Of a stretch of 64,000 nt of DNA, positions 9,472 to 22,822 are shown in pieces; within the stretch, counting starts at the first letter, position 1; the number at the start of each line of letters is the position of its first letter. The translations under genes and the position numbers were made by a program. The notes beneath the pieces were generated by a model. That model made no database searches, was not told where the DNA came from, and was given only the letters and a program-made list of their open reading frames with translations. Source of the DNA: Gammaproteobacteria bacterium (GTDB lineage: Bacteria > Pseudomonadota > Gammaproteobacteria > Pseudomonadales > Azotimanducaceae); the NCBI GenBank assembly GCA_018665025.1, contig JABJED010000264.1, positions 6,725-70,724 of the forward strand, written 5' to 3'.

Positions 9472-12400
9472 TTAACCGACAATCCCATCTCGCAATACCG
9501 GAAATCTAACCTCAAACGTGGTTCCTTGCCCACCAATCAATCGAAACGAACCCTCGAGTTGCTCTACCAGGATCGACACGATCTCGAACCCCATGGATCC
9601 AGCTTCCGTATTGACCTCTATAGGCAAGCCGCGACCGCTGTCGGAAACGAAAATTACACACTCTTTTGCAAGCAGATATAACTTTACTTCTACGGTCCCT
9701 GAACCATGCTGCCTACCTTCAAAACCATGAATCAGCGCGTTACTGAACAACTCATTGATAATAAGCCCGCACGGGACTGCAAGGTCGATCGCAAGATCGA
9801 ACTCTCCCAACTCCTTCAGCAAATTAATTTCCAGCTCTTCAGAAACCAATTTTCGGTACAGCGTCGACAAGAGTACGTCGACATACTCGCCCATTGCGAC
9901 CCGTCTAACCTCTCTTGACTGATAAAGGCGTTCGTGAACTAACGCAATGGAACTGATCCTTCGCTCATTCTCACCCAGGATATTCAATATCACTGGATCA
10001 GAACATTTAGCGGATTGAATACTTAACAAACTCGTTAGCGTTCCAAGGTTGTCATAGACGCGATCATGGATTTCACGGAGGAGTACATCTTTCTCCGCCA
10101 GTACGGCACTGAAGTCAGTTCTTTGATCAGCATTTTTTACCAAGGTAATATCTAGCTGATTGTGCAGATTATTTAATTCTACTGTGAGCTGGCCGTGGCT
10201 AACCCTAAGTGCTTCCTGCTCTCGGCTTCGCTCTGTGACATCCCTCACGATACTGACGTATGCCACGCCGTCTTCAGGGGTTTCCAACGCCGGAGAGACG
10301 CTAATTTCGAGTATTTTTCCGGTCCCATCAGACATCAGGTAGGGAACCTCCTCCCGGAAGTTATTACCGCTATCAACGTACTCTTTTGCCTCATGACGCT
10401 GACCCGCTTGCTGGAACAGTATTTCAAAAAGCGGGTAGCCACCCACCTCGGACGGACGTTTACCAAGAACACCGGCTACCGCATTATTAGAGAACATCAC
10501 ATTCCCCTGTTGATTGGCATTTAGTACGCATTCAGCCGTGTCATCCAGGGATTCAACATAGCCTCTCAATCGTCTATTGAAACGGTCCTCTGCCTGCCGG
10601 TTGATTCTTTTCGAGCTGAATATCATCAGCTGATAGAGCGAAAACAGTGCTAAAGCAACATATACACAATACGCCCACCACGTAGCCCACAGAGGCGGAT
10701 TGATGGTTATGGGAATGCTAAGTCCATCCTCATTCCACACTCCATCACTGTTAGCCCCCTGGACTCGTAACAGATACGATCCAGGGTGGAGGTTTGTATA
10801 GGTGATGTTTCGATTGGTACCGTTGTCGATCCACCGGGCATCATAGCCCTCCAGTTTGTATTGATAACGATTTTTCTGGGGATAGGTGTAATCTAACGCT
10901 GCTACTTCGACTGACAGCCCGTTAACGCCATACTCAAGCTGTAACATTCCCCCGTTGGATAATTCAGCTTTCTTATTGTTTAGAAGAAGCTGTGTAACGC
11001 GAACCGGGGGAACATAATCGTTTCGTCGAACCTGCTCTGTTCGTACTACATTAACTCCCTCGTTTCCTCCAAATAAAAGTATCTCTGGAGTCAAGTTTAG
11101 GTCCGCATTAAAATTTAGCTCACCAACTTGAACACCGTGCTCATGGTCAAATTTCAACACCTTATCGGTACCGTCTAACCTCAATATTGAACCCGCGCTA
11201 GCGATCCAGACACTCTCATCAGCCGCGCTCAAGAGCCCATAAACCGCTGCTCCTTCAGTTAGATTTAATCCAACCTTGCGTTCTAACTCGTTGCTACTGA
11301 AATCGAAATAAAACAGACCTCCTTCCAGACCCCCAAACCAAATGCCATTCTGCGTCGCCAGAACGCTGATAATATCACCGCTAACAACCAATTCAGCTTC
11401 ACCTGTACCCAGTCGAGCCGTATCCCCAGTAACAGGATCCAAGCCGAAAACACCTTCGGCGGTACCTATCCACAAGGTTCCTAATGCATATTCGTCAATT
11501 TCATAACACCTAAGATCAGGAAACTGACCCGAAAGATTGCTCAGTTCAGGATATCTTTCAAAACCCTCTTCAATCGATACGAATCTATTTACACCTCCCC
11601 CGAAAGTAGACGTCCAAACATCACCAGTACTCGACAGATACAAATCAGTTATCGCATTTGAGCTCAAAGAAGCCTCCCTATCCTCCTCGTGAACAAAATG
11701 TGCAACCAATATCTGGTTAGAATAAAGGTAGACCCCATTCGAATAAGTTCCAATCCACAACTGATCGAAATTATCAAACAAAATATTCATCACATGGTCT
11801 GAAAACAATTCCCCAGCAGAATCCCGAAAATCTTGCATGGTTCCCGCTAGTGGATCCCAAATCACCACCCCCGAATGGGTCCCGACTGCGACCTTACCCA
11901 ACGAATCTACTGCTAACGAAGAAATGGAATCATCAACATCCAGACCTTCCAGTCCATAGATGGGGAATTGAGTAGTTTGGGTATTGAATGAACTTACCCC
12001 TTTAAATGTGCTCACCCAAATGACACCGCCAACATCTTGAAATAGGTCGTAAACCAAATCTCCTATTAGCCCCTCAGTCTTACGGGGATCATATGAGTAT
12101 GAATGTAGCTTCTGCTTATCTCTATTCCATTTATGCAGGCCCTTATCTGAACCAATCCAAATGTTTCCTAGATTGTCCTCGAGCAGGGCACGAACCCGCT
12201 TGTCTTCAAGGTCGCCACTTTCCGTAAAGCTCTGGAACACCCCCGTCTTTGAAAGAACCGAAAGACCATCATTGTATGTTGCGATCCACAGGTTACCTTC
12301 CATATCAAAAAGAAGCTCTCGGATATAAGCATCCGGGCCTACCCCATACTTCTCATCCATACCATCAGCCGCAACAAACCGGTTGCCTTCCTGCCGGAAC

Positions 12401-13047
12401 AAGCCATTCCTTTCTGTTCCAACCCAAAGCTGCCCTTCGGTGTCTTGCACTATCGCGCGAACGGGTTCCCTTAAAGAATCCAAATATTGAACTCTTTTAT
12501 CAGCGCCAGTCTTCACTGAGAAAACCCCTAGCGATGTTCCTACCAGAACTTCACCAGATTGAGCCTCATATATGACATAGACTTTTAATTCACTACCTTG
12601 AAGCAGTTCTATATGGCGGAAGCTCTGAGTCCCGGGATCATAGACCGAGAGCCCACCACCGGTGCCAACCCATAAAACACCAGAACTATCGACTAGCAGC
12701 GATCGAACAAAGTCATGTGGTATGGATTCAGCCACATCACCTTTCAAGTACTTCCGAACCTTATACCCATCAAATCGATTTAGACCACTCGTTGTTCCAA
12801 ACCAAATAAAACCGGCACCATCCTGAGCAATCGCTGTCACTTGAGATTGTGTCAACTGCACCTCAGGAGGCAGTCTTCTAAAAACTACCTGTTTCTCATC
12901 GATGGGAGGGACATTTTTGTTTGCGCCATACGCACCAGCGATCAACATTGAGACAAAAAAGGGCAAAAAAATTAGCTTGAGAAATTGAAAGAAAGTAAAT
13001 GAACGAATTTTTATGTTGTTAGAGCGCGCATTCCCTGGCCAGTTCAT
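9472..13047 (-). CDS. Periplasmic beta-propeller / Y_Y_Y sensor histidine kinase (HisKA_2-type), paralog 1
   Basis: N-terminal TM segment, many 'two-component regulator propeller' repeats (GLNRFDGY, LWVGTGGGLSVYD, NIWIGSDKGLHKW). Y_Y_Y module (NRYQYKLEGYDARW...YTNLHPGSYLLRVQG), then TM, PAS, H-box LLREIHDRVYDNLGTLTSLLSIQ and an ATPase domain (GLIINELFSNALIHGF, DSGRGLP). The start overlaps the upstream gene's stop (ATGA). Confidence 0.85.
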   Translation of the reverse strand: MNWPGNARSNNIKIRSFTFFQFLKLIFLPFFVSMLIAGAYGANKNVPPIDEKQVVFRRLPPEVQLTQSQVTAIAQDGAGFIWFGTTSGLNRFDGYKVRKYLKGDVAESIPHDFVRSLLVDSSGVLWVGTGGGLSVYDPGTQSFRHIELLQGSELKVYVIYEAQSGEVLVGTSLGVFSVKTGADKRVQYLDSLREPVRAIVQDTEGQLWVGTERNGLFRQEGNRFVAADGMDEKYGVGPDAYIRELLFDMEGNLWIATYNDGLSVLSKTGVFQSFTESGDLEDKRVRALLEDNLGNIWIGSDKGLHKWNRDKQKLHSYSYDPRKTEGLIGDLVYDLFQDVGGVIWVSTFKGVSSFNTQTTQFPIYGLEGLDVDDSISSLAVDSLGKVAVGTHSGVVIWDPLAGTMQDFRDSAGELFSDHVMNILFDNFDQLWIGTYSNGVYLYSNQILVAHFVHEEDREASLSSNAITDLYLSSTGDVWTSTFGGGVNRFVSIEEGFERYPELSNLSGQFPDLRCYEIDEYALGTLWIGTAEGVFGLDPVTGDTARLGTGEAELVVSGDIISVLATQNGIWFGGLEGGLFYFDFSSNELERKVGLNLTEGAAVYGLLSAADESVWIASAGSILRLDGTDKVLKFDHEHGVQVGELNFNADLNLTPEILLFGGNEGVNVVRTEQVRRNDYVPPVRVTQLLLNNKKAELSNGGMLQLEYGVNGLSVEVAALDYTYPQKNRYQYKLEGYDARWIDNGTNRNITYTNLHPGSYLLRVQGANSDGVWNEDGLSIPITINPPLWATWWAYCVYVALALFSLYQLMIFSSKRINRQAEDRFNRRLRGYVESLDDTAECVLNANQQGNVMFSNNAVAGVLGKRPSEVGGYPLFEILFQQAGQRHEAKEYVDSGNNFREEVPYLMSDGTGKILEISVSPALETPEDGVAYVSIVRDVTERSREQEALRVSHGQLTVELNNLHNQLDITLVKNADQRTDFSAVLAEKDVLLREIHDRVYDNLGTLTSLLSIQSAKCSDPVILNILGENERRISSIALVHERLYQSREVRRVAMGEYVDVLLSTLYRKLVSEELEINLLKELGEFDLAIDLAVPCGLIINELFSNALIHGFEGRQHGSGTVEVKLYLLAKECVIFVSDSGRGLPIEVNTEAGSMGFEIVSILVEQLEGSFRLIGGQGTTFEVRFPVLRDGIVG

Positions 13048-15107
13048 TCCAGGCTACGCAGATACTCGGTCATTTCAGCTGCAGGCATTGGTTTGCTGTA
13101 GTAAAAGCCTTGAATGTAGTCACAGCCATAGTCACGTAAAATCTCTAACTGCTCTTCATTTTCAACGCCTTCGGCCAGCGTCGTCAAATTCAAACTCTGA
13201 CCCATAGCAATAATGGCCTTGGTGATCTCTTTATCGTCTTCATCTATATGAAGGTCTTTGATAAAAGAGCGATCAATCTTTAAGGTCGTCAGTGGAAATC
13301 GTTTCAAGTATGACAATGAGCTATAGCCTGTGCCAAAGTCATCCATGCTGATGTTCACCCCGAGACGGCGTAAATCTTCGAGCATCGTTGTGTAGTGCTC
13401 CACATTCTTCATCGCCAGGCCCTCTGTGATCTCTATAGTCAAAGTCGACGGCTTTATTCCTGAAGTCGCCATCGCATCTTGAACTAGTGCCGACACATCT
13501 GTTTCAAACTGACGCGCACTGAAGTTTACTGCTACTCGAAAGCCGTCTAATCCCATATCTCCCCAGCTACGGATCTGGTTGCATACTTTTCTTAGCACAT
13601 ATTCACCCAGTGGCGTGATCAATCCAGTCGCTTCCGCAATGGGAATAAACTCTTCGGGGTCGATCATTCCTTCTTCCGGATCCGGCCAGCGCAACAGCGC
13701 TTCCATACTGGAAAGCTGTCCTGTTTCCAGGTCAATGATCGGCTGGTATTGAACGTCGAAAACACCCTCGACTAACGCCTTCTGCATCCCGTTTTTTCGA
13801 TCAATAAACCTTACGGCGTCTTCATACATCGCGTTGTCGAACACGACATATGAACCCTGAGCATCTGTCTTCGCACGATTCAGGGCGGTGTCGGCATCAC
13901 GCAGCATTTCATCCGCTGAATGATAATCGCCGCTATTCACTACGACCCCGACCGATGCTGTAATATTCAGCGCATTATCATTGACAGCAATAGGTTCCCG
14001 GACCGCAGTCGTGATTCGCTGACAGGCCTGTATCGACTCGGCCACTGCATCGACTGGATCCAACAGAACCGCAAATATATCGCCGCTAAACCGGGAAACT
14101 GTATCGTCATCGCGAATAATTTCCCTTATTCGCTTTCCAATTTCAGTGATGACCTTATCACCAACCTCGTGACCAAACCCTTCATTAATCACTGCGAAAC
14201 CATCAAGCCCGATGAATAGAACCGAGAACTCCCCCTGTTGGCCATCTCTTTCCCGCCGGTTAATCGATCGATTAAGTCGATCCACGAACAAGGCCCTGTT
14301 GGGAAGCTCTGTCAAACCATCAAAGAAGGCGTTTTTCTGAATTGTTTCCTCGTAACCGAGTTGTTGCGAAATGTCCCTAAAGGTAATAACCGTAAGATTA
14401 GAATCTTTGTCCAAAAAGTTTGCACTTAGTTCAATCGGTACTGTTCGTCCATCGGCTCGCGTAAGCATTTGTCGAATACCACTGAACTGCTTCCAGTAGG
14501 CAAAAGTTTCCGGACTCATCAGGTTGATGACCCCTTGCCCGGATTCGAACGCCTCCAGCTTGAAAAGATCATCGATGCCCATTCCAAATCCAGCCCCGGC
14601 CTCACAACCCACTATCTTCTCTGCCATAGGATTAATCAGGAATATCTTGCCACTTGCATCTGCTGCAATTACACCGTCGCTCACATTATTCAAAGTGGCA
14701 TCCAGGTTTTGCTTGGTGTCTGCCAGGTCTCGCTCTACTTTATGCTTAAAGAGAGCAATTTCTATATTTATAGAAAGTTCTCTGTTATCAAACGGCTTTA
14801 GCACATAGCCAAAAGGAGAGGTGACCTTGGCGCGCTGTAACACTTCATCGTTCGAATACGCGGTGCAGAAAATAACAGGGATCGACCTGGCTTCGTTAAT
14901 CTTCGTTGCTGCCTCAATACCATCCATTTCACCTCGGAGGTTAATATCCATAAGGATCAAATCCGGATTTTCACTCAAGGCAAGTTTTATGGCGTCCTCA
15001 CCTCTGGCAGCAGTACCAGCAACGGTGTAGCCCATACGCTCGAGACGAGCACGAATATCTCTTGCTACCAGCACCTCATCTTCAACAATTAAAACGCTAT
15101 TACTCAT
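13044..15107 (-). CDS. Response regulator REC-PAS-GGDEF(degenerate)-EAL; likely a c-di-GMP phosphodiesterase
   Basis: REC (LIVEDEVLVARDI, DLILMDINL). The GGDEF site reads RFSGDIFAVLL. The EAL domain looks intact (EALLRW, DDFGTGYSSLSYL, KIDRSF, AEGVE). Confidence 0.9.
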   Translation of the reverse strand: MSNSVLIVEDEVLVARDIRARLERMGYTVAGTAARGEDAIKLALSENPDLILMDINLRGEMDGIEAATKINEARSIPVIFCTAYSNDEVLQRAKVTSPFGYVLKPFDNRELSINIEIALFKHKVERDLADTKQNLDATLNNVSDGVIAADASGKIFLINPMAEKIVGCEAGAGFGMGIDDLFKLEAFESGQGVINLMSPETFAYWKQFSGIRQMLTRADGRTVPIELSANFLDKDSNLTVITFRDISQQLGYEETIQKNAFFDGLTELPNRALFVDRLNRSINRRERDGQQGEFSVLFIGLDGFAVINEGFGHEVGDKVITEIGKRIREIIRDDDTVSRFSGDIFAVLLDPVDAVAESIQACQRITTAVREPIAVNDNALNITASVGVVVNSGDYHSADEMLRDADTALNRAKTDAQGSYVVFDNAMYEDAVRFIDRKNGMQKALVEGVFDVQYQPIIDLETGQLSSMEALLRWPDPEEGMIDPEEFIPIAEATGLITPLGEYVLRKVCNQIRSWGDMGLDGFRVAVNFSARQFETDVSALVQDAMATSGIKPSTLTIEITEGLAMKNVEHYTTMLEDLRRLGVNISMDDFGTGYSSLSYLKRFPLTTLKIDRSFIKDLHIDEDDKEITKAIIAMGQSLNLTTLAEGVENEEQLEILRDYGCDYIQGFYYSKPMPAAEMTEYLRSLE

Positions 15108-18100
15108 TTATCGCTCTTGGGAAGCGAATCTGGAAAACAGCCCCATCATCATTATGTGCGGACAGCGTGCCTTCAAGCTGCTCGGTCAAAATTGTTACAA
15201 TTTCCAGCCCCATCGACGTGTTCTTACTAAGATCAAAGTCTGGCGGGAGGCCAGAACCGTTGTCCGATATCCGCAGATCAAAGCTACAATCAGTGGTTAC
15301 AAAATCAATATCTATAATCCCTGTCTCCTCCTTATCATGAAATGCGTGCTTCAAAGAATTCGATACAAGCTCGTTGATTATGAGACCGCATGGAACGGCA
15401 GTCTCCAGGTCCAACACTACATTCTCTACGTTGACTTCCACGAAAACTGAGACTCCCGGAACCACGTATGATCGACTTAAGCTGTTGGTTAGTAACTCTA
15501 TGTAATCTTGAAAGTCTATGTTCAAAAGATCTTTTGATTGGTAGAGCGATTCATGAATCAGCGTCATCGACTTGATTCGCTGCTGACTTTCGTTAAGCAG
15601 GCTTGAATAAACCTCGTCGTCTACACCCTCCGCCTGGATGCTTAACAGGCTGGAGATGACCTGCATGTTGTTCTTCACACGATGATGGACTTCTTTGATC
15701 AATAGTTCTTTTTCAGCTAGTGAATTTTCGAGAGCCTGCTGTTGCAGTAGGCTTTTGCTAACTTCTTCCTCCAACTTACTCGTTCTTTCTATAACCTGCG
15801 TTTCAAGGTTTCTTGAATAGTGCTCCAGCTGAAGTTCAGTTTCCTTTCTCTGCGTGATATCTCGCGCAATCGCAATCAACGTCACGACACCCTGATACTC
15901 AGTTCGCGCAACGCTAATCTCATAAAATTTTTCCACCGCCAGTCGGCGAACCACTTCGGTGGAGAATCGCCCCGACTCCACAACACGAGATTCCACTTCG
16001 GCTCTCTCGTCAGCTGAATCAAAGAGCGTTTCTAGTAACTGACTACCAACGCCAGAGTCTAGCTCTGGGGTTTTAAACAACGCCAAAAACAGTGCATTTT
16101 GGTACTCGATGACGCCTTCTTCCGACGCAATTGCTATCGCGTCCGTGGCTTGCTCTAACGTCTGGATGTACTTTTCAAGGCGTGCTCGATGACTATCTTC
16201 AGCGATCCTCGCCATCCGCTGTGCGTTTAATCTATAGATGCCGGTTAAAACCAATACCGCCAAAATAAGGTAGCCCAAATAGGCCCACCAGCTCTGAAAC
16301 CAGGGAGGAAGTACATTTAGCTCAACCGCTAGCTGGTCACTTGACCATATTCCATCACCGTTGGTCGCCCTTACCCTAAAGGTGTATCTGCCGGGGTCCA
16401 GATTGGTATAAGCCACTGACCTATCGTTACCTGCTTTTACCCAATCAGGTTCGAATCCCTCTAACTGATATTCATACTGGTTTCGTAACGGACTAGAGTA
16501 GTCCATCGCTCCGTATTCAAACTCGATCACGTAGTCGTCGTGTTCAATTTCAATCTGGCTGGACTCAGTAAACGGTCTGTCGAGCGCGAAGTTTTTGTTC
16601 AGTTTTTTAAAACCGGTTAACTCCACCTTGGGTGAAAATGTACTCGACTTAATTTCTAAAGGATTGAAGGCATTAAAACCGGAATTCCCGCCGTACAAAA
16701 AGGTGCCGTCCATCATTCTTAGATAGGCGCCGTTGTTAAAATCGTCCGCTTGAAGCCCATGGCTAGTGTCGTAGATGTCCCACTGCCCCTCTTCCTTCAG
16801 AACTGACAACCCTTTCCCACCGCTCACCCACGCGCCGAGATTATCGTCTTCGAGCACGCCATAGGCTGCTACCGACGAGAGACCGTCTTCTTTAGTGATA
16901 CGAGTGACTTCTAACGTTGTCGGATCCACAAGGCTCAGGCCGGCGTCTCTGGCCCCTACCCACATCCCCCGAGCACCTTTAGAAACGGATACAAGGTTAT
17001 CGGAAGCTATCGTGCTCCGCTCCTCGGCATTGTGCCTGAGCGTTGTCACAACCTCATTCTCGGGATCAAGAATCATCAAGCCACCACCGTTGCTCGCGAT
17101 CCAAATATTACCCAGTACATCCTCTGCAACATCAGTTATTCGGAGGTCGGAAAATTCAGTCTTATTGTTGGGGTAGTGCTTGAACGAGGTACCGCCTTGG
17201 TATAAATCCAGACCGGTTCCATACAAACCAACCCAAATCCGCTTTTGGCTATCGACAAAGACTTTACTTACCTGGTCGCTAGCCAGGCTAGATGCCTTGC
17301 TGCTTGCTGTGTATTGTCGGGTTAACCCTGTGTTCACAGTGAAGGCAGTCAATCCGCCGTTCATCGTTCCAATCCAGACCGTAGAGTTCTCTTCTTGCTC
17401 TTCAACCGCCAAGGCCATCACTCGGTTGTCTCTGAGAGCAAAGTCATCTATTCGGCGGAACTCACCACTCGTTTTGTCATAGGCTGTTAGGCCAGTAAAA
17501 GTTCCAATCCATAAGGTTGTTTTATCTTCAGCAAAAGACGTGATGCTGTTGCCAGCCAGCTCCCCTCCTGTGTTGCGATCCATCTTGTAAAGCGCAAACC
17601 TGGGAGCGGCGGAATTCCATTTCGATATACCATTATAGGTACCCACCCAGATTACCCTGCCCGCATCTTCAAACAACGCGGACACCTTATTATCTGATAA
17701 AGAGCTTGGATCACTGCCTTTGTGCGTGAAATTTGAGGATGTGCCTTCTTCCTGATCTAAAACGAATAATCCATCATCCGTGCCTACCCAAATTCGGCCT
17801 TCGCTGTCGCTTAACAGGTTTCTCGTTCTAGTCGTCGCAGTGCCTTGGACTGACTCTAATGGTTGATATTGGAACTGTAGTGTCGTCGTGTCGCCGCGCC
17901 ATAAACCATTGTTGAAGGTTGCTACCCAAAGAAAACCTTTGGGACCTACCATCAGGCTCCTGATCATGTTGCCTGGTAGGTCAGTATCGTAGAACCCTCG
18001 CGTAAAACGGATAATTTCACCACTGTCAGGGTTCAGCCGCGACAGGCCACTAGGGTCGGTTCCTACCCAGATATTACCCTGGGTGTCTTGTTCAATAGCG

Positions 18101-18642
18101 TGAACTGCACCTTGACCCAGCGTTTGGGGATCAACAGCCTCATGCCGATAGTGTGTTAGCGAACTTTCGCTCGTTATCTTGATCAACCCAGCGCCTGTAC
18201 CAACCCACAAGCTACCATCAGCGTCAACAAACAATGCTCGGATGGAACTATCGCTGCCGGTGACAGGGGTAGTTGCTTCTCTTATATCGACTATATCGAC
18301 GCGGCGGAAGGTTGATGTCGCAGCGTTAAAGACGTTCAATCCGTTGTCAGTACCGATCCATATGTTTCCTTGAGAGTCCTCGACTATCGCCGAAACATAA
18401 TCGTGTGACAGGGATGTCAGGTCAGCTTGAACGTTAAAAAACGTTTCAAACTTCTCTCCGTCGTAAATGTTTAATCCTTCAGTCGTACCTATCCAGACCA
18501 GCCCACTCGAATCTTGAGTGATAACATTTACCGTCGTTTGAGATAGTCCTTCTCTCGTGTTGATTCGCTCAAATGTTGGATTCAGACGGTTTACCAGGTC
18601 AGAGGCGGACACTTCCCCGACACTAATTAACCCTAGAACCAA
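15100..18642 (-). CDS. Periplasmic beta-propeller / Y_Y_Y sensor histidine kinase (HisKA_2-type), paralog 2
   Basis: Same architecture as 9472..13047: propeller repeats, NQYEYQLEGFEPDW...YTNLDPGRYTFRVRA, TM, PAS, canonical H-box EVHHRVKNNMQVISSLLSIQ, and GLIINELVSNSLKHAF...DNGSGLP. The track start is TTG 18642. An in-frame CTG at 18657 would give a better signal peptide (MKYAFLVLGLISVGEVSA). The stop overlaps the REC-EAL start (ATGAGTAA). Confidence 0.85.
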   Translation of the reverse strand: MVLGLISVGEVSASDLVNRLNPTFERINTREGLSQTTVNVITQDSSGLVWIGTTEGLNIYDGEKFETFFNVQADLTSLSHDYVSAIVEDSQGNIWIGTDNGLNVFNAATSTFRRVDIVDIREATTPVTGSDSSIRALFVDADGSLWVGTGAGLIKITSESSLTHYRHEAVDPQTLGQGAVHAIEQDTQGNIWVGTDPSGLSRLNPDSGEIIRFTRGFYDTDLPGNMIRSLMVGPKGFLWVATFNNGLWRGDTTTLQFQYQPLESVQGTATTRTRNLLSDSEGRIWVGTDDGLFVLDQEEGTSSNFTHKGSDPSSLSDNKVSALFEDAGRVIWVGTYNGISKWNSAAPRFALYKMDRNTGGELAGNSITSFAEDKTTLWIGTFTGLTAYDKTSGEFRRIDDFALRDNRVMALAVEEQEENSTVWIGTMNGGLTAFTVNTGLTRQYTASSKASSLASDQVSKVFVDSQKRIWVGLYGTGLDLYQGGTSFKHYPNNKTEFSDLRITDVAEDVLGNIWIASNGGGLMILDPENEVVTTLRHNAEERSTIASDNLVSVSKGARGMWVGARDAGLSLVDPTTLEVTRITKEDGLSSVAAYGVLEDDNLGAWVSGGKGLSVLKEEGQWDIYDTSHGLQADDFNNGAYLRMMDGTFLYGGNSGFNAFNPLEIKSSTFSPKVELTGFKKLNKNFALDRPFTESSQIEIEHDDYVIEFEYGAMDYSSPLRNQYEYQLEGFEPDWVKAGNDRSVAYTNLDPGRYTFRVRATNGDGIWSSDQLAVELNVLPPWFQSWWAYLGYLILAVLVLTGIYRLNAQRMARIAEDSHRARLEKYIQTLEQATDAIAIASEEGVIEYQNALFLALFKTPELDSGVGSQLLETLFDSADERAEVESRVVESGRFSTEVVRRLAVEKFYEISVARTEYQGVVTLIAIARDITQRKETELQLEHYSRNLETQVIERTSKLEEEVSKSLLQQQALENSLAEKELLIKEVHHRVKNNMQVISSLLSIQAEGVDDEVYSSLLNESQQRIKSMTLIHESLYQSKDLLNIDFQDYIELLTNSLSRSYVVPGVSVFVEVNVENVVLDLETAVPCGLIINELVSNSLKHAFHDKEETGIIDIDFVTTDCSFDLRISDNGSGLPPDFDLSKNTSMGLEIVTILTEQLEGTLSAHNDDGAVFQIRFPRAINE

Positions 18643-18861
18643 GAATGCGTACTTCAGTGTCCTTAAATGCTTAAAAATGTATAACCCCTCATTCTTGCTC
18701 TACCCAACGGGCGATCCCTGCGCTATTGAGTTACCACACAAAATCAGACCCTTCTATGTCTGACCAACTTTCACCTTCTATCTTTCCGATAAGCTCTTTA
18801 ATACCCGTGACTAAAGCAGCACTTTGCGATGTATCAGACATCTTGATGCCTAATTCTTCCG

Positions 18862-19761
18862 TTAGGTCTCTAACTGAAGCTCAGGACCACTCGGCAATAA
18901 GGTTGGCGTCGCATCACGCCATAAGAACCTTGCAAGCTGCGGTGCATCTACCTGCTTTTCAGGGGCTTCATCCCACAGGAACCTCGCTAAGTCCTGTTCT
19001 TCCGGCCATTGCTTTTCGTCGTAATCCCGAAGTTGCCAATAAAAACCGGCTAATAGGTGGTCTGGATCTAGCGTGCCCTGCAGCGGGGCCTGCTCACTCC
19101 ATTGAAGCTCAGGACCACTCGGCAATAAGGTTGGCGTCGCATCACGCCATAAGAACCTTGCAAGCTGCGGTGCATCCACCTGCTTTGCAGGGGCTTCATC
19201 CCACAGGAACCTCGCTAAGTCCTGTTCTTCCGGCCATTGCTTCTCGTCGTAATCACGAAGTTGCCAATAAAAACCGGCTAATAGATGGTCTGGATCTAGC
19301 GTGGCCTGCAGCGGGGCCTGCTCACTCCATTGAAGCTCAGGACCACTCGGCAATAAGGTTGGCGTCGCGTCACGCCAGAGGAACCTTGCAAGCTGTGGCT
19401 GAGCATCCTTGCTCAAAGTAACATCCTGTAGCGCGGCACTTTGCTTCGCGGGTTCTTCTTCCCATAAAAAGCGGGCCAATAGTTGGTCCGGGTCAAGCGT
19501 TGCCTGTTCGCTCCATTGAAGCTCCTGGTTGCTCGGCAATGCGGTTGGACTCGCATCCCGCCATAAAAACCGTGCCAGCAGAGGATCAGGCTGGACATCC
19601 CTGCCCACAACTTGCGTGTTGTCAGCCTCCGTGCGCCGTGTCTCATCCACCGATATTAGCGAGTCGTTCTGTCTCAGTATCCCGTCCTCACGTGCCAAGG
19701 ACGAATGGAAGCTGGTCAGACAAAATATTATCGCGACCGTATAAAGAAAAATCTTCTGCAT
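18862..19761 (-). CDS. Secreted acidic Trp-rich tandem-repeat protein ('LARFLW' repeats), function unknown
   Basis: Signal peptide MQKIFLYTVAIIFCLTSFHSSLA. Six LARFLW modules plus one LLARFLW variant and two LLAGFYW modules, including two near-identical 76-aa units. GGAG Shine-Dalgarno 8 nt before the ATG. I recognise no known family. Confidence 0.75.
   Translation of the reverse strand: MQKIFLYTVAIIFCLTSFHSSLAREDGILRQNDSLISVDETRRTEADNTQVVGRDVQPDPLLARFLWRDASPTALPSNQELQWSEQATLDPDQLLARFLWEEEPAKQSAALQDVTLSKDAQPQLARFLWRDATPTLLPSGPELQWSEQAPLQATLDPDHLLAGFYWQLRDYDEKQWPEEQDLARFLWDEAPAKQVDAPQLARFLWRDATPTLLPSGPELQWSEQAPLQGTLDPDHLLAGFYWQLRDYDEKQWPEEQDLARFLWDEAPEKQVDAPQLARFLWRDATPTLLPSGPELQLET
18876..19400. 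repeat. 228-bp tandem DNA repeat: two full copies plus a partial third, inside the repeat-protein gene
   Basis: GAAGCTCAGGACCACTCGGCAATAAGG recurs at 18876, 19104 and 19332 (period 228 = 76 codons). Copies 1 and 2 differ at about 6 positions by eye. A more diverged copy starts near 19518. Confidence 0.9.
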
Positions 19762-19801
19762 CTGCTAGTGCTCCAACAATTGGTTTATCGCCGGTATAGT
19801 A

Positions 19802-19817
19802 TGCAGTCTTTGTGCCA
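19802..19817 (-). promoter_or_regulatory. Sigma-54 (-24/-12) promoter for the repeat-protein / kinase operon
   Basis: The minus strand reads TGGCACAAAGACTGCA. Against the consensus TGGCACG-N4-TTGCW, the GG and GC are at exact spacing. It lies about 40 nt upstream of ATG 19761 and directly downstream of a sigma-54 activator gene. Confidence 0.7.
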
Positions 19818-19903
19818 GCTCTGTAAGAACTTCTATGGCATTGATTTAATTAAAGATTTTTGGGGAGGAAGGTGTTGATCGGTCAAAAATGGTCATTTAT
19901 GGC

Positions 19904-19933
19904 GAAAAATATCGGCGTATTCGCCGTTTTTTT
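19904..19933. terminator. Short hairpin with flanking T/A runs after the activator gene (weak terminator; could also be part of an activator binding site)
   Basis: CGGCG-TATT-CGCCG (19913-19926) with T7 on the + side and ATATTTTT on the minus side. Confidence 0.35.
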
Positions 19934-19951: not shown

Positions 19952-22822
19952 TTAGAAAATATTGGCGAATTCTTCTGTCATTCGACGATAGGTTGGCAGT
20001 GACACACCCAGCAGTTGCGCGCAAACGCTGCGGCTTAGTTTTCGGTCTTGGAGTTCGCTCATCAACAGCGCCGCCAGGATATCCAGCGGCTGCGCTGATT
20101 CCAGCGAAGCCATTTTCATCACTTCATGATACAACTCAGGGGTAACCGGCCATTCAGCTGGTCGTTCAGCCTCGAGAGAGCCGTAGGTTGCCTCCATTTT
20201 CTGGACCTTTCGGCGCAGTGTTGATTCCGGTACCGCAATCGAAAGTGCTGCACGGTTAAGCACACCATCGTGATGTTTAATGCTCATGAGGATGAAATCC
20301 TCCTCAAGGTAGCGTCCAACCGCCACAGGTTTACTGCCGCTGGCCCCCACATCTACCACTGCTTGTAAAATTGGCCGCAGCCCAATAGTTGTTCGAGGCG
20401 GTTCATGGCGCTCGGTTACGCCGCTAAAAACACCTACCTGGATCGCGGTAATCAATTGGTCCTTGCTCAGTATCACCGCCCGGTTAACCACATTCGACAG
20501 CTCTCGGATGTTACCTGGCCAAGCGTAATCCAGAAGAGCTTGTTCAGCATCGGCAGTAAAACCTGTGACCGTTTTGTTGTAGCGGGCAGCAAAATGCTGC
20601 AGGTAGTATCGAGCCACTTTCAAGATGTCGGCCTGTCGATCACGCAGCGGCGGTACAGCAATTGAAAAGACATTGAGCCGGTAATAAAGGTCTTCCCTGA
20701 ACCTGCCTTCACCCACCATCTCCTTAAGATCTCTGTTGGTAGCAGCAATAACCCGGGCATCAACTGTTTCATACTGGTTAGAACCAACTGCCGCGACCTG
20801 CCTGTCCTGGACGAACCGCAGAAGCTTTACCTGAGTGTCTAATGGTAATTCACCAATTTCATCAAGCAAAACTGTTCCACCATTCGCTTCTTTCAGTCGC
20901 CCGGTGAAGTTGGATGTCGCCCCGGTAAAAGCACCCTTGACGTGACCAAAAAGCTCACTCTCAATCAGGCTGGGTGCCACCGCGCCGCAATCCACGACAA
21001 CCAGCGGCTTATTCCTGCGGCTGCCTTCGTGGTGAATGTACCTGGCGACGACTTCCTTGCCGGTACCTGACTCACCTAAGAGCAGTACCGTAACATCTGT
21101 GGGTGCCGCAAGGTCTGCAGTATCAAGCACATGCTGCATTTCCGCAGAATCATAAACCAGCTGCTGATCCGTCGAATCAAGGACCTGAACAGGCTCCGGC
21201 TCAACATCAAAGCGTGAAATACTGCTGCCGAAGTAGGTACTTAATGAGGACAGAAAGGGCTGGTCCTCATCACTAAACTCACCACCCGACAAGAAGAGCA
21301 CCCATCGCCCTGCCAGATCAAACAACGCCGTATCGCTGCTCAACTGATCATGCCAATCTCCTTTTGATACCGCTTTGATAGCGGAAAATTCACGTTCACT
21401 TAATTCCAGACCTGATATATCGCCAGCCTTGCCATTACTTTGGGTATACCCAACCTCAAGATTAATCTTGTCATCGGCAACGCTGAGTAGCGCCGAACGC
21501 TGTGTCCTAAACACATGGAAAAGGTGTCGACAGAATTCATCACACATCGTGTCAAGGTCATTGGCCGTGGCTAGTGCATTCATCACATTCCACAGCAACA
21601 CGACGTGCCGGTAGTCTTGGCTGCCGCTCATCTCTCTCGAATCGATATCGGGTTCACCGCCATCAACCCAAAGACGATTACCACCTGAACGTCTTGCTGT
21701 ATCCAGCGCAGAAGTGGCACGGCGAAACAATTCAATCGGTTCCTGATCCCCTCCGGTGCTATGGGCAAGCCCGGCACTAAAGGTAAACGGCTTGCCCGAA
21801 TGCTCGTATTCATTGAGTTGCTCCAGAAGCGCAAAAGCGATCTGCTCACCAGCTGTCACAGTGGTGTAGGGCAAACTAACAGATACCATAGAATTAGCGA
21901 ATATACTGACCAGGTCGGTCGCTCTCATGGATGAGTCGAGCCTGGCACGCACATCTTCAACAATTTCAGCTAAAACCGCGCTGGTCGCGCCGTCCGGCGA
22001 GATCAACACCTGGCAAAAAGATGATTCACTGGGGGACAGTTGACCTGAGCCAAGCATGGCATATCTTTCTGTAGCGCCAAGTTTTACAGGGTCTTCGATA
22101 TCGCCAAGATCTCTCAGGATCAATACCGCACCCTCGTCCATGGGGCCTACAATACCATCGACCAGCTTGGTGGTACCGGGCGCGCGCTGCATTAGAAAAG
22201 GTGGCAGCTTAGTCAGGTTCTTGTCACGTAGCGCACTTTTTACGTTACCGGCGACTGATGATTTTTCACCAAGCACTTGACGCCAGGCGGCACCCGTATC
22301 CAGGTCCCGCCCCAGCAATTCTCGGGCATCCTGGTTGATGTTGATGATTTTGCCTTCCTGGTCTAAAAAAATCAGTGCATTGCCAATACAGGCAAGTGCG
22401 GTTTCCAGCAGCTGTTGTTTTTCTTTGAGCTCTTTTTCTACGCGAAATTTATACAGCGCCATTTCAATCGTGATTTGTAGATCACGATTCTCAACAGGCT
22501 TAATGATGTATCCAAAGGGAGTGACTGTTTTGGCTCTGGCAACCGTGTCTTCATCAGAGAAGGCCGTGAGAAAAACAATCGGAATGTCCATCAACGCCTG
22601 GATTCTTTCGGCCAGGTCGATACCACTTAAACCGTGGCGCAGCTGAATATCACTTAGCAAGAGGTCCGGCCGGGTTTCAAGCGCGAGTTCAACCGCTTCT
22701 TCGCCGAAAGCAATGCCAACGACTTCCCAACCCATCTTTGTGAGCCTTTGCCGAATTTCATGCGCGATCAGCGCTTCATCTTCTACGATGAGAATTTTTG
22801 CCGGAGCCGATTCCTCAGTCAC
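19952..22822 (-). CDS. Sigma-54-dependent response regulator with extra sensory domains (REC-PAS-degenerate GGDEF-GAF-like-AAA+-HTH)
   Basis: REC (ILIVEDEALIAHEI, DLLLSDIQL). The GGDEF-like fold lacks the motif (SIFANSMVSVSL...FSAGLAHS...ALDTARRSGGNRLWV). AAA+ core (LLLGESGTGKEVVARYIH, ELFGHVKGAFTGA, GGTVLLDEIGEL, RVIAATNRDL). HTH (ALSIAVPESTLRRKVQKM) plus a second HTH-like tail (VCAQLLGVSLPTYRRM). GTG start with a GAGG Shine-Dalgarno. Confidence 0.9.
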   Translation of the reverse strand: MTEESAPAKILIVEDEALIAHEIRQRLTKMGWEVVGIAFGEEAVELALETRPDLLLSDIQLRHGLSGIDLAERIQALMDIPIVFLTAFSDEDTVARAKTVTPFGYIIKPVENRDLQITIEMALYKFRVEKELKEKQQLLETALACIGNALIFLDQEGKIININQDARELLGRDLDTGAAWRQVLGEKSSVAGNVKSALRDKNLTKLPPFLMQRAPGTTKLVDGIVGPMDEGAVLILRDLGDIEDPVKLGATERYAMLGSGQLSPSESSFCQVLISPDGATSAVLAEIVEDVRARLDSSMRATDLVSIFANSMVSVSLPYTTVTAGEQIAFALLEQLNEYEHSGKPFTFSAGLAHSTGGDQEPIELFRRATSALDTARRSGGNRLWVDGGEPDIDSREMSGSQDYRHVVLLWNVMNALATANDLDTMCDEFCRHLFHVFRTQRSALLSVADDKINLEVGYTQSNGKAGDISGLELSEREFSAIKAVSKGDWHDQLSSDTALFDLAGRWVLFLSGGEFSDEDQPFLSSLSTYFGSSISRFDVEPEPVQVLDSTDQQLVYDSAEMQHVLDTADLAAPTDVTVLLLGESGTGKEVVARYIHHEGSRRNKPLVVVDCGAVAPSLIESELFGHVKGAFTGATSNFTGRLKEANGGTVLLDEIGELPLDTQVKLLRFVQDRQVAAVGSNQYETVDARVIAATNRDLKEMVGEGRFREDLYYRLNVFSIAVPPLRDRQADILKVARYYLQHFAARYNKTVTGFTADAEQALLDYAWPGNIRELSNVVNRAVILSKDQLITAIQVGVFSGVTERHEPPRTTIGLRPILQAVVDVGASGSKPVAVGRYLEEDFILMSIKHHDGVLNRAALSIAVPESTLRRKVQKMEATYGSLEAERPAEWPVTPELYHEVMKMASLESAQPLDILAALLMSELQDRKLSRSVCAQLLGVSLPTYRRMTEEFANIF

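Follow-up and report, generated by a model that had tools for sequence, protein, structure and literature searches.

The 64,000-nucleotide stretch of DNA analysed here (the window) contains a repeat-rich open reading frame (ORF) that raises two questions: what the encoded protein is, and whether it still serves a purpose. The ORF, characterised by a recurring LARFLW motif, is real. It spans 18862..19761 on the minus strand, starts with ATG and encodes 299 amino acids (aa), and it adjoins a gene for a response regulator (RR)-sigma-54 activator on its 5' side and one for a Reg_prop/Y_Y_Y sensor kinase (HK1) on its 3' side. The initial annotation described the product as a secreted repeat protein of no recognisable family. 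In profile searches Pfam returned only VERL (E 0.007, under the family cut-off), NCBIfam matched nothing meaningful, and PDB sequences gave no match at E≤1. Only nine homologues were found among 5.8 billion clustered proteins, and an exhaustive phmmer search of 1.84 billion representatives yielded only fifteen relatives. The ORF is nonetheless assignable: intact relatives, together with fossils in the window itself, indicate that it is almost certainly the surviving N-terminal pro-region of an S8 subtilase precursor, without the I9 and catalytic parts.

The relatives share a locus, flanked at one end by the genes for malate synthase G and the RR/sigma-54 activator and at the opposite end by that for a Reg_prop/Y_Y_Y kinase. 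In the locus L014 (810..3110), the same promoter is followed by one uninterrupted frame of 766 aa. This frame opens with the signal peptide MQKFILYTVAIIFCLTSFHSSLA, which is near-identical to that of the window ORF with two residues transposed, and continues through four LARFLW motifs (modules A, C', A and C'') into an I9-type propeptide and then an S8 domain carrying DTG, HGTH and SGTSQS (Pfam PF00082, E 4e-46). The C-terminal part consists of a run of GFLWQYSDFENQ repeats (GFLWQY repeats) with the end ...IARWVKQE. The same intact architecture is seen in P0132 (702 aa), L016 and the noisy contig L001, and these close relatives together span 702–766 aa. L001 is 93.5% identical to the window DNA over a 4.1-kb alignment that takes in the activator gene and the ORF's 5' part, and the gene order in L014 and L016 is activator, subtilase gene and HK1, as in the window. 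A segment of the intact relatives aligns with the I9 region of the family, and the I9 of P0101 is confidently folded by AlphaFold2; the Pfam I9 profile did not score at E≤0.01. Homologues of HK1 lie directly 3' of the intact subtilase in L006, L014, L016, L107 and L108, and activator homologues lie directly 5' of Trp-array subtilase genes in L014, L098, L099, L103 and L107-L110. There is no paralogous Trp-array subtilase within the 64-kb window.

The 170 bp downstream of the ORF, ahead of HK1, hold three collinear protease fossils, which were recovered both by blastn and by a gap-tolerant alignment (collinear with L014):

18842..18859, minus strand: untranslated I9 propeptide fossil EELGIK, an 18-nt exact match to L001 10745-10762
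18800..18841, minus strand: S8 catalytic-Ser motif fossil MSDTSQSAALVTGI, corresponding to MSGTSQSAAVVTGI in intact genes
18689..18799, minus strand: protease C-terminus fossil ending ...GESWSDIEGSDFVW, stop, LNSAGIARWVEQE, stop, which matches the ends of L014 and P0011 (...GEGMQDSGFLWQYGSPEIARWVKQE)

Read in the other frame past the window stop, the DNA gives EELGIK, then MSDTSQSAALVTGI, then KELIGKIEGESWSDIEGSDFVW, a stop, LNSAGIARWVEQE and a further stop. The I9 counterpart of EELGIK in L001 is AAEELGIKVTHELP. The Ser-motif fossil comprises 14 codons in a frame other than that of the ORF, with Gly changed to Asp; blastn aligns it to L001 11775-11815 at 80% identity (E 1.5e-4), and 35 of 47 nt match L014. 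Within the C-terminus fossil, 18733-18731 is an internal stop and 18691-18689 the ancestral one, and IARWVEQE followed by a stop is retained.

The stop that ends the third repeat copy is itself the scar of a frameshifting deletion. A TCA microhomology links the A-module sequence CTTCA/ATGG to the I9 sequence GCGTCA/GGTAAAGA, with a one-base shift of frame. In the I9 frame the junction reads DKDLTETKRLAEELGIK in L002 and GKDLSEMKRAAEELGIK in the intact L001, and L010 keeps CAGGTAAAGAC. The junction product is Q-(L/V/I)-(E/K)-(T/V)-stop, which in the window becomes ...PELQ-LET-stop. This junction is common to all truncated alleles examined (the window, L010, L002-L005, L122-L124, P0001 and P0003-P0008); the truncation happened once. 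One deletion fused the A module to the I9 region out of frame and so created the stop, and two further deletions took away about 1.9 kb comprising I9, the catalytic domain and the tail. By position and descent the ORF is a subtilase gene, but by content it is not a peptidase: Pfam PF00082 (Peptidase_S8) finds no match in it, its I9 propeptide is reduced to the untranslated EELGIK (18859-18842) and three out-of-frame codons, and the terminal WVEQE survives only as an untranslated fossil. The fitting annotation, given the lack of a catalytic domain and of I9, is that of a truncated subtilase precursor (N-terminal Trp-array fragment).

Tandem Repeats Finder detects a single array in the ORF, at 18875..19395 (period 228, 2.3 copies, 96% matches), with a score of 979 that is far above chance. 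A module map, made by cutting the protein at every LA[R/G]F motif, bears out the modular structure described in the initial annotation, and sequence features support the signal peptide described there:

19693..19761, minus strand (codons 1-23): putative Sec-type signal peptide MQKIFLYTVAIIFCLTSFHSSLA, from sequence features
codons 24-61, minus strand: N-terminal linker of 38 residues, from the module map
19393..19692, minus strand: linker plus the older modules A0 and C', common to the intact alleles L001, L014 and P0132
19578-19480, minus strand: module A0, LARFLWRDASPTALPSNQELQWSEQATLDPDQL, an older, more diverged copy
19479-19393, minus strand: module C', LARFLWEEEPAKQ..., an older, more diverged copy
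18937..19392, minus strand: two 228-bp (76-aa) A-B-C units, from Tandem Repeats Finder and unit alignment
19392-19165, minus strand: unit 1 (A1-B1-C1)
19164-18937, minus strand: unit 2 (A2-B2-C2)
18874..18936, minus strand: third A module, A3, ending ...PSGPELQ at the deletion junction
18862-18873, minus strand: L-E-T-stop (TAA), three out-of-frame I9 codons

Units 1 and 2 are near-identical, as had been noted, with the correction that they differ at 9 nt (96.1% identity over 228 bp) and not at about 6 of 228 (about 97%). These differences comprise 7 synonymous nt in 6 codons and 2 nonsynonymous changes, so that 6 of the 8 changed codons are synonymous. The third copy is indeed cut off, as a truncated A3, with the deletion junction accounting for its stop. 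The ORF carries seven LARFLW and two LAGFYW motifs (nine LA[R/G]F[L/Y]W in all), and 14 Trp of the 299-aa protein fall within repeat modules. By inspection the signal peptide has an MQK n-region, the h-region IFLYTVAIIFCLTSF and HSSLA before the cleavage site, and AlphaFold2 predicts a helix at residues 2-24; we infer that the product is exported via Sec. Reading it as a lipoprotein was rejected, there being no lipobox and Phe preceding the Cys. Long alternative-frame and antisense ORFs overlap the repeats (window 18726-19421, plus strand, 231 aa; 19413-19646, minus strand, 77 aa) and are by-products of the repeat structure; P0009 is partly mis-called in an alternative frame, on a frameshifted contig.

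Copy number varies among strains, as the initial annotation had expected. The relatives range from 165 to 405 aa because they contain anything from 1.3 to 3.3 of the 76-aa units and from 1 to 4 tandem B modules, and the 228-bp and 63-bp units continue to grow and shrink in number through unequal recombination. The possibility of an assembly artefact, raised at the outset, was rejected: the window, P0002 and P0003, which are independent assemblies, all have the 2.3-unit architecture, and there are 9 positions at which the units differ. Arrays do break or are masked in assemblies (contig ends in L007, L012, L013 and L015; runs of N in L110), and copy numbers from short-read assemblies therefore need caution. 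Array length varies in the intact type as well, L012 having at least three A-C' units and L015 a triplicated C'.

For the N-terminal array we defined a class by a signal peptide, at least four [LVM]A[RK][FY][LM]W[DEGRQ][DE] motifs 15-40 residues apart, and an acidic chain predicted to be disordered. The window ORF has these features, and the pattern is also found in L014, P0137-P0140, L101, L103 and L107-L110. Proteins P0137-P0140, retrieved by exhaustive phmmer, are distant and combine a signal peptide with ARYLWDE-type arrays; in P0138 and P0140 the array continues into I9 and the gene lies directly 3' of an RR-sigma-54 activator. A genome scan with P0140 as query gave no relatives. A scan with a degenerate two-motif DNA pattern was then used and gave seven loci in metagenome-assembled genomes of Pseudomonadales (L101, L103, L104 and L107-L110), one of them a Candidatus Azotimanducaceae chromosome, all with an N-terminal array of ARYLWDE type. 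In five of the seven, an array of 4-10 motifs is followed by S8, with a recognisable I9 in four of these five; L104 stops inside the array. C-terminal Trp repeats were seen in L103, L107, L108 and L110, with a WVxQE end that can be read in L107 and L108. The RR-sigma-54 activator stands upstream in six of the seven loci at 45-68% identity, and downstream L107 has a propeller kinase and an RR-GGDEF gene and L108 the start of a propeller kinase. Since the cassette recurs in related Pseudomonadales, the order activator, Trp-array subtilase, propeller kinase and RR-GGDEF-EAL is ancestral and the window copy is degenerate. The N-terminal array is rarer than the C-terminal tail, yet it is not private to the clade of the window.

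The parent protease belongs to a large subfamily (1280 matches at E≤1e-10), some members of which are labelled 'AprX' by the Joint Genome Institute (JGI). Among solved structures it comes closest to Tk-SP from Thermococcus kodakarensis (PDB 3afg), which P0011 matches at E 8e-37, with 9ues also near. Members consist of a signal peptide, I9, S8, a small C-terminal domain and tandem Trp repeats ending in ...NxWVxQE, and we described the tail by a pattern of 6-12-residue G-[YF]-[LIVM]-W-[TSNR]-[DEN] repeats followed by NxWVxQE. The repeats, 6-12 residues long, include GYLWTD, GGFIWRD, GSVWNE, TDALIWRMNFE and others, with a period and sequence that vary between clades, and the ...NxWVxQE end is near-invariant (L018-L097, P0011-P0129). 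Pfam and NCBIfam cover only the catalytic domain and model neither the N-terminal array nor the C-terminal Trp tail. A scan of species-representative genomes gave 80 loci (L018-L097), from taxa including Colwellia, Thalassotalea, Pseudoalteromonas, Kangiella, Woeseia, Thiocystis, Acidobacteriota, Chloroflexota and Gemmatimonadota, and 72 of these genes were complete and had 1.5 kb or more of sequence downstream. The Trp tail and conserved terminus are present in 68 of the 72. A Reg_prop/Y_Y_Y sensor gene follows on the same strand within 700 bp in 40 of the 72 and within 6 kb in nine more, in taxa that include Alteromonadales, Kangiellaceae, Acidobacteriota, Holophagae and Gemmatimonadota. The outputs of these sensors vary, being GGDEF in Alteromonadales (Pseudoalteromonas L009, 11828-14965) and a HisKA_2 kinase in the window. 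The pairing of protease and sensor genes is strong and cross-phylum.

In the window the corresponding cassette, with domain assignments from Pfam, is as follows:

19952..22822, minus strand: response-regulator/sigma-54 enhancer-binding protein of 956 aa (Response_reg, Sigma54_activat, AAA_lid_14)
19913..19926, minus strand: terminator-like GC hairpin and T-run after the activator gene
19802..19817, minus strand: sigma-54-type element TGGCACaaagaCTGCA (TGGCAC-N5-CTGCA), 41 nt 5' of the ATG
15100..18642, minus strand: HK1, a Reg_prop double-propeller/Y_Y_Y/PAS/HisKA_2 sensor kinase
13044..15107, minus strand: response regulator with PAS-GGDEF-EAL output, conserved in the cassette
9472..13047, minus strand: HK2, a second Reg_prop/Y_Y_Y/PAS/HisKA_2 sensor kinase

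The sigma-54 promoter and the adjacency to two propeller sensors, both proposed in the initial annotation, are borne out. The element has one mismatch to the consensus and taken alone is not above chance within the window; it is, however, identical or retained in every intact and truncated allele, and in L002 it reads TGGCACAGGGATTGCT at the same distance inside an otherwise diverged upstream region. A GGAG ribosome-binding site is conserved in all alleles and there is no terminator-like site between the ORF and HK1, the remaining ORF being the first cistron of the sensor operon. The ancestral protease stop lies only about 45 nt before the HK1 start, which points to a tight operon. The called TTG start of HK1 (window 18642-18700) gives a very short N-terminus, MVLGLISVGEVSA; read a few codons further 5' (MKYAFLVLGLISVGEVSA) the protein would have a better signal or anchor, but this requires a CTG start. 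Residues ~289-383 of the activator, between the receiver and AAA+ domains, look weakly GGDEF-like (E 2e-4, short of the Pfam cut-off), and such a middle domain is unusual in an enhancer-binding protein.

Whether the remnant is still under selection was judged from polymorphism in five closely related truncated alleles, using a non-redundant ORF skeleton. There were 23 synonymous and 21 nonsynonymous events, giving a ratio of nonsynonymous to synonymous polymorphism (pN/pS) of 0.26 (binomial P = 1.4e-5 against neutrality); pN/pS was 0.13 in the neighbouring activator gene and about 0.22 in the B-module and terminal part specific to truncated alleles. Two nonsynonymous changes lie in the three out-of-frame tail codons. 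All motif Trp are invariant and the LARFLW cores nearly all so, and no frameshift or stop was found in at least ten distinct truncated alleles. In the untranslated fossil about 10% of the sites segregate, and there is a 1-nt indel. It is likely that the ORF product is still functional. The corresponding divergence ratio (dN/dS) between the window and L002 over the 5' 100 codons, where dS is about 2.4 as against 0.31 in the activator gene, is uninformative on selection after the truncation because the L002 segment is an anciently diverged mosaic piece.

The locus is clearly a recombination mosaic. L002 10001-10300 and its upstream region are very diverged from window 19460-19900, but in the 3' repeats, the junction and the fossil the difference is only about 8%. 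The truncated allele is therefore a mosaic, and it seems to have moved between lineages. The periplasmic domain of HK1 (window 15100-18642) is only 43-77% identical to that of the intact haplotype L016 (2053-5586), with synonymous sites saturated over codons 1-1000, and the flanking activator and RR-GGDEF genes of the same two are 92-96% identical. Residues 120-300 of HK1 are also the part most diverged from L002 10900-14439. This divergence looks like an ancient allelic dimorphism or repeated recombination at the sensor.

The explanation that we favour, as probable but by no means secure, is that of a truncated subtilase remnant whose Trp-motif array has been retained, is exported and works together with the sensors next to it. 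The product would still be made and kept by selection. The ancestral gene encoded a sigma-54-controlled, Sec-exported subtilase with an array of [L/V]A[R/K][F/Y]LW[D/E/R] motifs, in the order signal peptide, array, I9, S8 and C-terminal Trp-repeat tail ending ...WVxQE, and the remnant encodes the signal peptide and an acidic, predicted-disordered Trp-motif chain. In the periplasm or outside the cell, multivalent short Trp motifs would act on HK1 and HK2, either directly or as a source of Trp peptides, and the kinases would signal back to the sigma-54 activator and the GGDEF-EAL regulator via the receiver domains of both. The link to the sensors is drawn from the cross-phylum gene order, from the retention of array and sensors when the enzyme was lost, and from an analogy with peptides that dock on propellers. 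Granted a functional product, the array may be a sensor ligand or a peptide source, which we hold to be almost as probable as the contrary. The idea of a sensor partner, put forward in the initial annotation for the ORF itself, gains real contextual support, which runs through the protease, from the pairing in 40 of 72 loci and the conserved cassette.

Structure prediction is in keeping with an array of this kind. AlphaFold2 predicts a short helix precisely at each LARFLW of the ORF, at a mean predicted local distance difference test (pLDDT) score of 29.9, and the C-terminal Trp tail of P0101 is likewise predicted as unstructured (pLDDT below 30), although with such poorly aligned repeats of variable length it may yet fold. 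The N-terminal array and the C-terminal tail look in these models like strings of short linear motifs and not like domains. The B module GFYWQLRDYDEKQ resembles GFLWQYSDFENQ of L014 in protein, with DNA identity of only about 60% by eye; when LAGFYWQLRDYDEKQWPEEQD of the B module was considered as a transplant from the C-terminal GFLWQYSDFENQ, the same clear protein likeness was accompanied by only about 60% identity in DNA.

Several observations weigh against the favoured explanation. The low pLDDT derives from an 8-sequence alignment and is weak evidence for disorder. The likeness of LARFLW to the C-terminal repeats is moderate: among the Trp contexts scored with a family-tail matrix, ARFLWRD ranks within the top 1-2% and ARFLWDE within the top 5%, and the others do not score high. 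An adjacent sensor is absent beside 23 of the 72 Trp-tailed S8 genes, so the tail cannot strictly depend on a neighbouring sensor gene. The HK2 orthologue in L002, L004 and L005 is a 565-aa PAS-HisKA_2-HATPase protein with no propeller or periplasmic domain (L002 16492-18189, compared with window 9472-13047 and its full Reg_prop/Y_Y_Y), and this loss of the sensor domain may be further erosion of the cassette. Because the locus is a recombination mosaic, some variants may have been filtered by selection in intact genes, and polymorphisms imported from intact alleles under selection for the full protease may inflate the apparent constraint. The promoter also drives HK1, RR and HK2, so its conservation proves little for the ORF; it and the ribosome-binding site would be conserved simply as drivers of these genes, and a leader ORF could continue to be translated for no other reason than to spare the downstream genes a polar effect.

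In the strongest of the rival explanations the ORF is a dead remnant that is merely open upstream of the frameshift and is transcribed on account of its place between promoter and sensor genes, with a degraded product of no role and an expansion due to neutral slippage. The stop does come from an out-of-frame junction, deletions, an internal stop and a 1-nt indel show the remainder of the gene to be in decay, a sister lineage has an eroded HK2, and the predicted-disordered product lacks the active domains of the parent. As 228 and 63 nt are both multiples of three, changes in copy number can never break the frame. Against neutral decay stand the low pN/pS in the ORF and in its truncated-specific part, the skew of unit differences towards synonymous changes, the invariance of the motif Trp, and a frame that is free of lesions in at least ten truncated alleles when the 170-nt fossil already has indels. 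We consider a dead remnant unlikely.

A product that functions without the sensors is less probable again. It could be a decoy substrate or competitive inhibitor of subtilases, those of neighbours or paralogues, or a binder of membranes or surfaces through amphipathic Trp helices. During subtilase maturation the I9 propeptide inhibits and is then digested by the mature enzyme, and Phe-, Leu- and Trp-rich motifs make good subtilisin P1 sites. The parent array sits on I9, the part that inhibits and gets digested, and its motifs would suit subtilisin P1; every LARFLW is predicted as a short amphipathic helix, and the evidence of constraint on the truncated alleles applies here equally. No I9 fold remains, however, beyond six residues out of frame, the window has no paralogous Trp-array subtilase to inhibit, and the conserved gene order with the sensors is left unexplained. 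An independent orphan family, with the subtilase-fused forms as secondary fusions, is highly improbable: the lack of a Pfam, NCBIfam or PDB match and the mere fifteen phmmer relatives would fit it, but it is contradicted by the I9, Ser-motif and C-terminal fossils lying in the right order in the window, by the fused form in more distant lineages (array 30-40%, activator 45-68% identity), and by the confinement of the stand-alone form to one shallow clade with a single junction. The weakest candidate, a multi-core precursor of peptides that are made on the ribosome and then modified (RiPP) or a source of Trp-rich antimicrobial peptides, to which short repeated Trp cores between acidic spacers bear a superficial resemblance, has a negligible chance of being right, with a Sec signal peptide in place of a leader, modules that are acidic and not cationic, no radical-SAM, cyclase, methyltransferase or ABC-exporter genes in the cassette or relatives, and window neighbours that are regulators and central-metabolism genes only.

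How the retained array and its parent stand to known systems can be stated briefly. With S8 pre-pro-enzymes such as Tk-SP (3afg) the parent (L014/P0132) shares the signal peptide, an I9-like propeptide and the S8 Asp-His-Ser triad, but it adds a 150-300-aa LARFLW/ARYLWDE array between signal peptide and I9, and a predicted-disordered C-terminal tail of 6-12-residue Trp repeats ending NxWVxQE; the window gene has lost I9 and the catalytic domain completely. With truncated genes or pseudogene remnants that keep an open 5' frame the window gene shares a frameshifting deletion, a premature stop and decaying fossils, but its frame is under purifying selection (pN/pS 0.26) and its repeats are still expanding in frame, and in this it behaves more like a retained domain-loss variant than like neutral debris. 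The Reg_prop/Y_Y_Y hybrid two-component sensors of Bacteroides (for example BT4663) bind breakdown products made by enzymes of their own locus. They have the same periplasmic sensor architecture and are likewise encoded beside a secreted hydrolase, whereas here the enzyme is a protease and not a glycanase, and the output is HisKA_2 or GGDEF instead of an AraC-type fusion. Among peptide signals made by proteases, the Phr/CSF pro-peptides of Bacillus are cut by subtilisin, Epr and Vpr, and the A-signal of Myxococcus is sensed via SasS and the sigma-54 activator SasR. These offer an analogy in working, with a Sec-exported precursor, subtilisin-type processing and a kinase read-out, and no relation in sequence; the putative precursor here differs in being the protease's own part or orphaned pro-region, and the candidate receptor is a periplasmic propeller. 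The clathrin box, L-phi-x-phi-[DE], is a short linear motif that docks on beta-propellers, and the likeness to it is purely formal, consisting of a hydrophobic-hydrophobic-Trp-x-acidic motif in many repeats on a predicted-disordered chain.

What is new here is not so much the ORF as what it brings to light, a Trp-repeat feature of a large S8 subfamily and the tight pairing of that subfamily with propeller sensors. Nothing relevant was found in the searchable literature on Trp-rich repeats in subtilases, on Reg_prop/Y_Y_Y sensors with peptidases, or on sigma-54 with subtilisin, and three features (the Trp-tailed S8 subfamily, the N-terminal array of Pseudomonadales and the sensor pairing) are without a description that we could find there or in Pfam or NCBIfam. 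For annotation the locus is a caution: a repeat ORF that looks 'novel' may be no more than the front end of a broken gene, with the fossils lying just past the stop. To our knowledge, it is mainly in the hybrid two-component systems of Bacteroides that ligands of Reg_prop/Y_Y_Y sensors are characterised, and the protease-sensor pairing gives concrete candidates for others, namely Trp peptides or protease products. The occurrence of intact and beheaded alleles in closely related marine bacteria amounts to a natural experiment in which a secreted public-good enzyme has been lost and its sensing circuit kept. A further idea, which we regard as doubtful, is that both types of array (the N-terminal LARFLW/ARYLWDE and the C-terminal GYLWTD) are cognate ligands of the Reg_prop/Y_Y_Y sensors and make the protease self-reporting. 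If so, maturation or self-digestion of the protease would free Trp peptides that bind the neighbouring propeller and report active protease outside the cell, and the signal would feed back through sigma-54 and cyclic di-GMP. The window lineage would then have dropped the enzyme and kept the reporter array as a protease-independent autoinducer or decoy. This lineage lives alongside intact-allele strains and carries a sensor allele of ancient divergence, a situation that would be akin to pherotype polymorphism in peptide quorum sensing.

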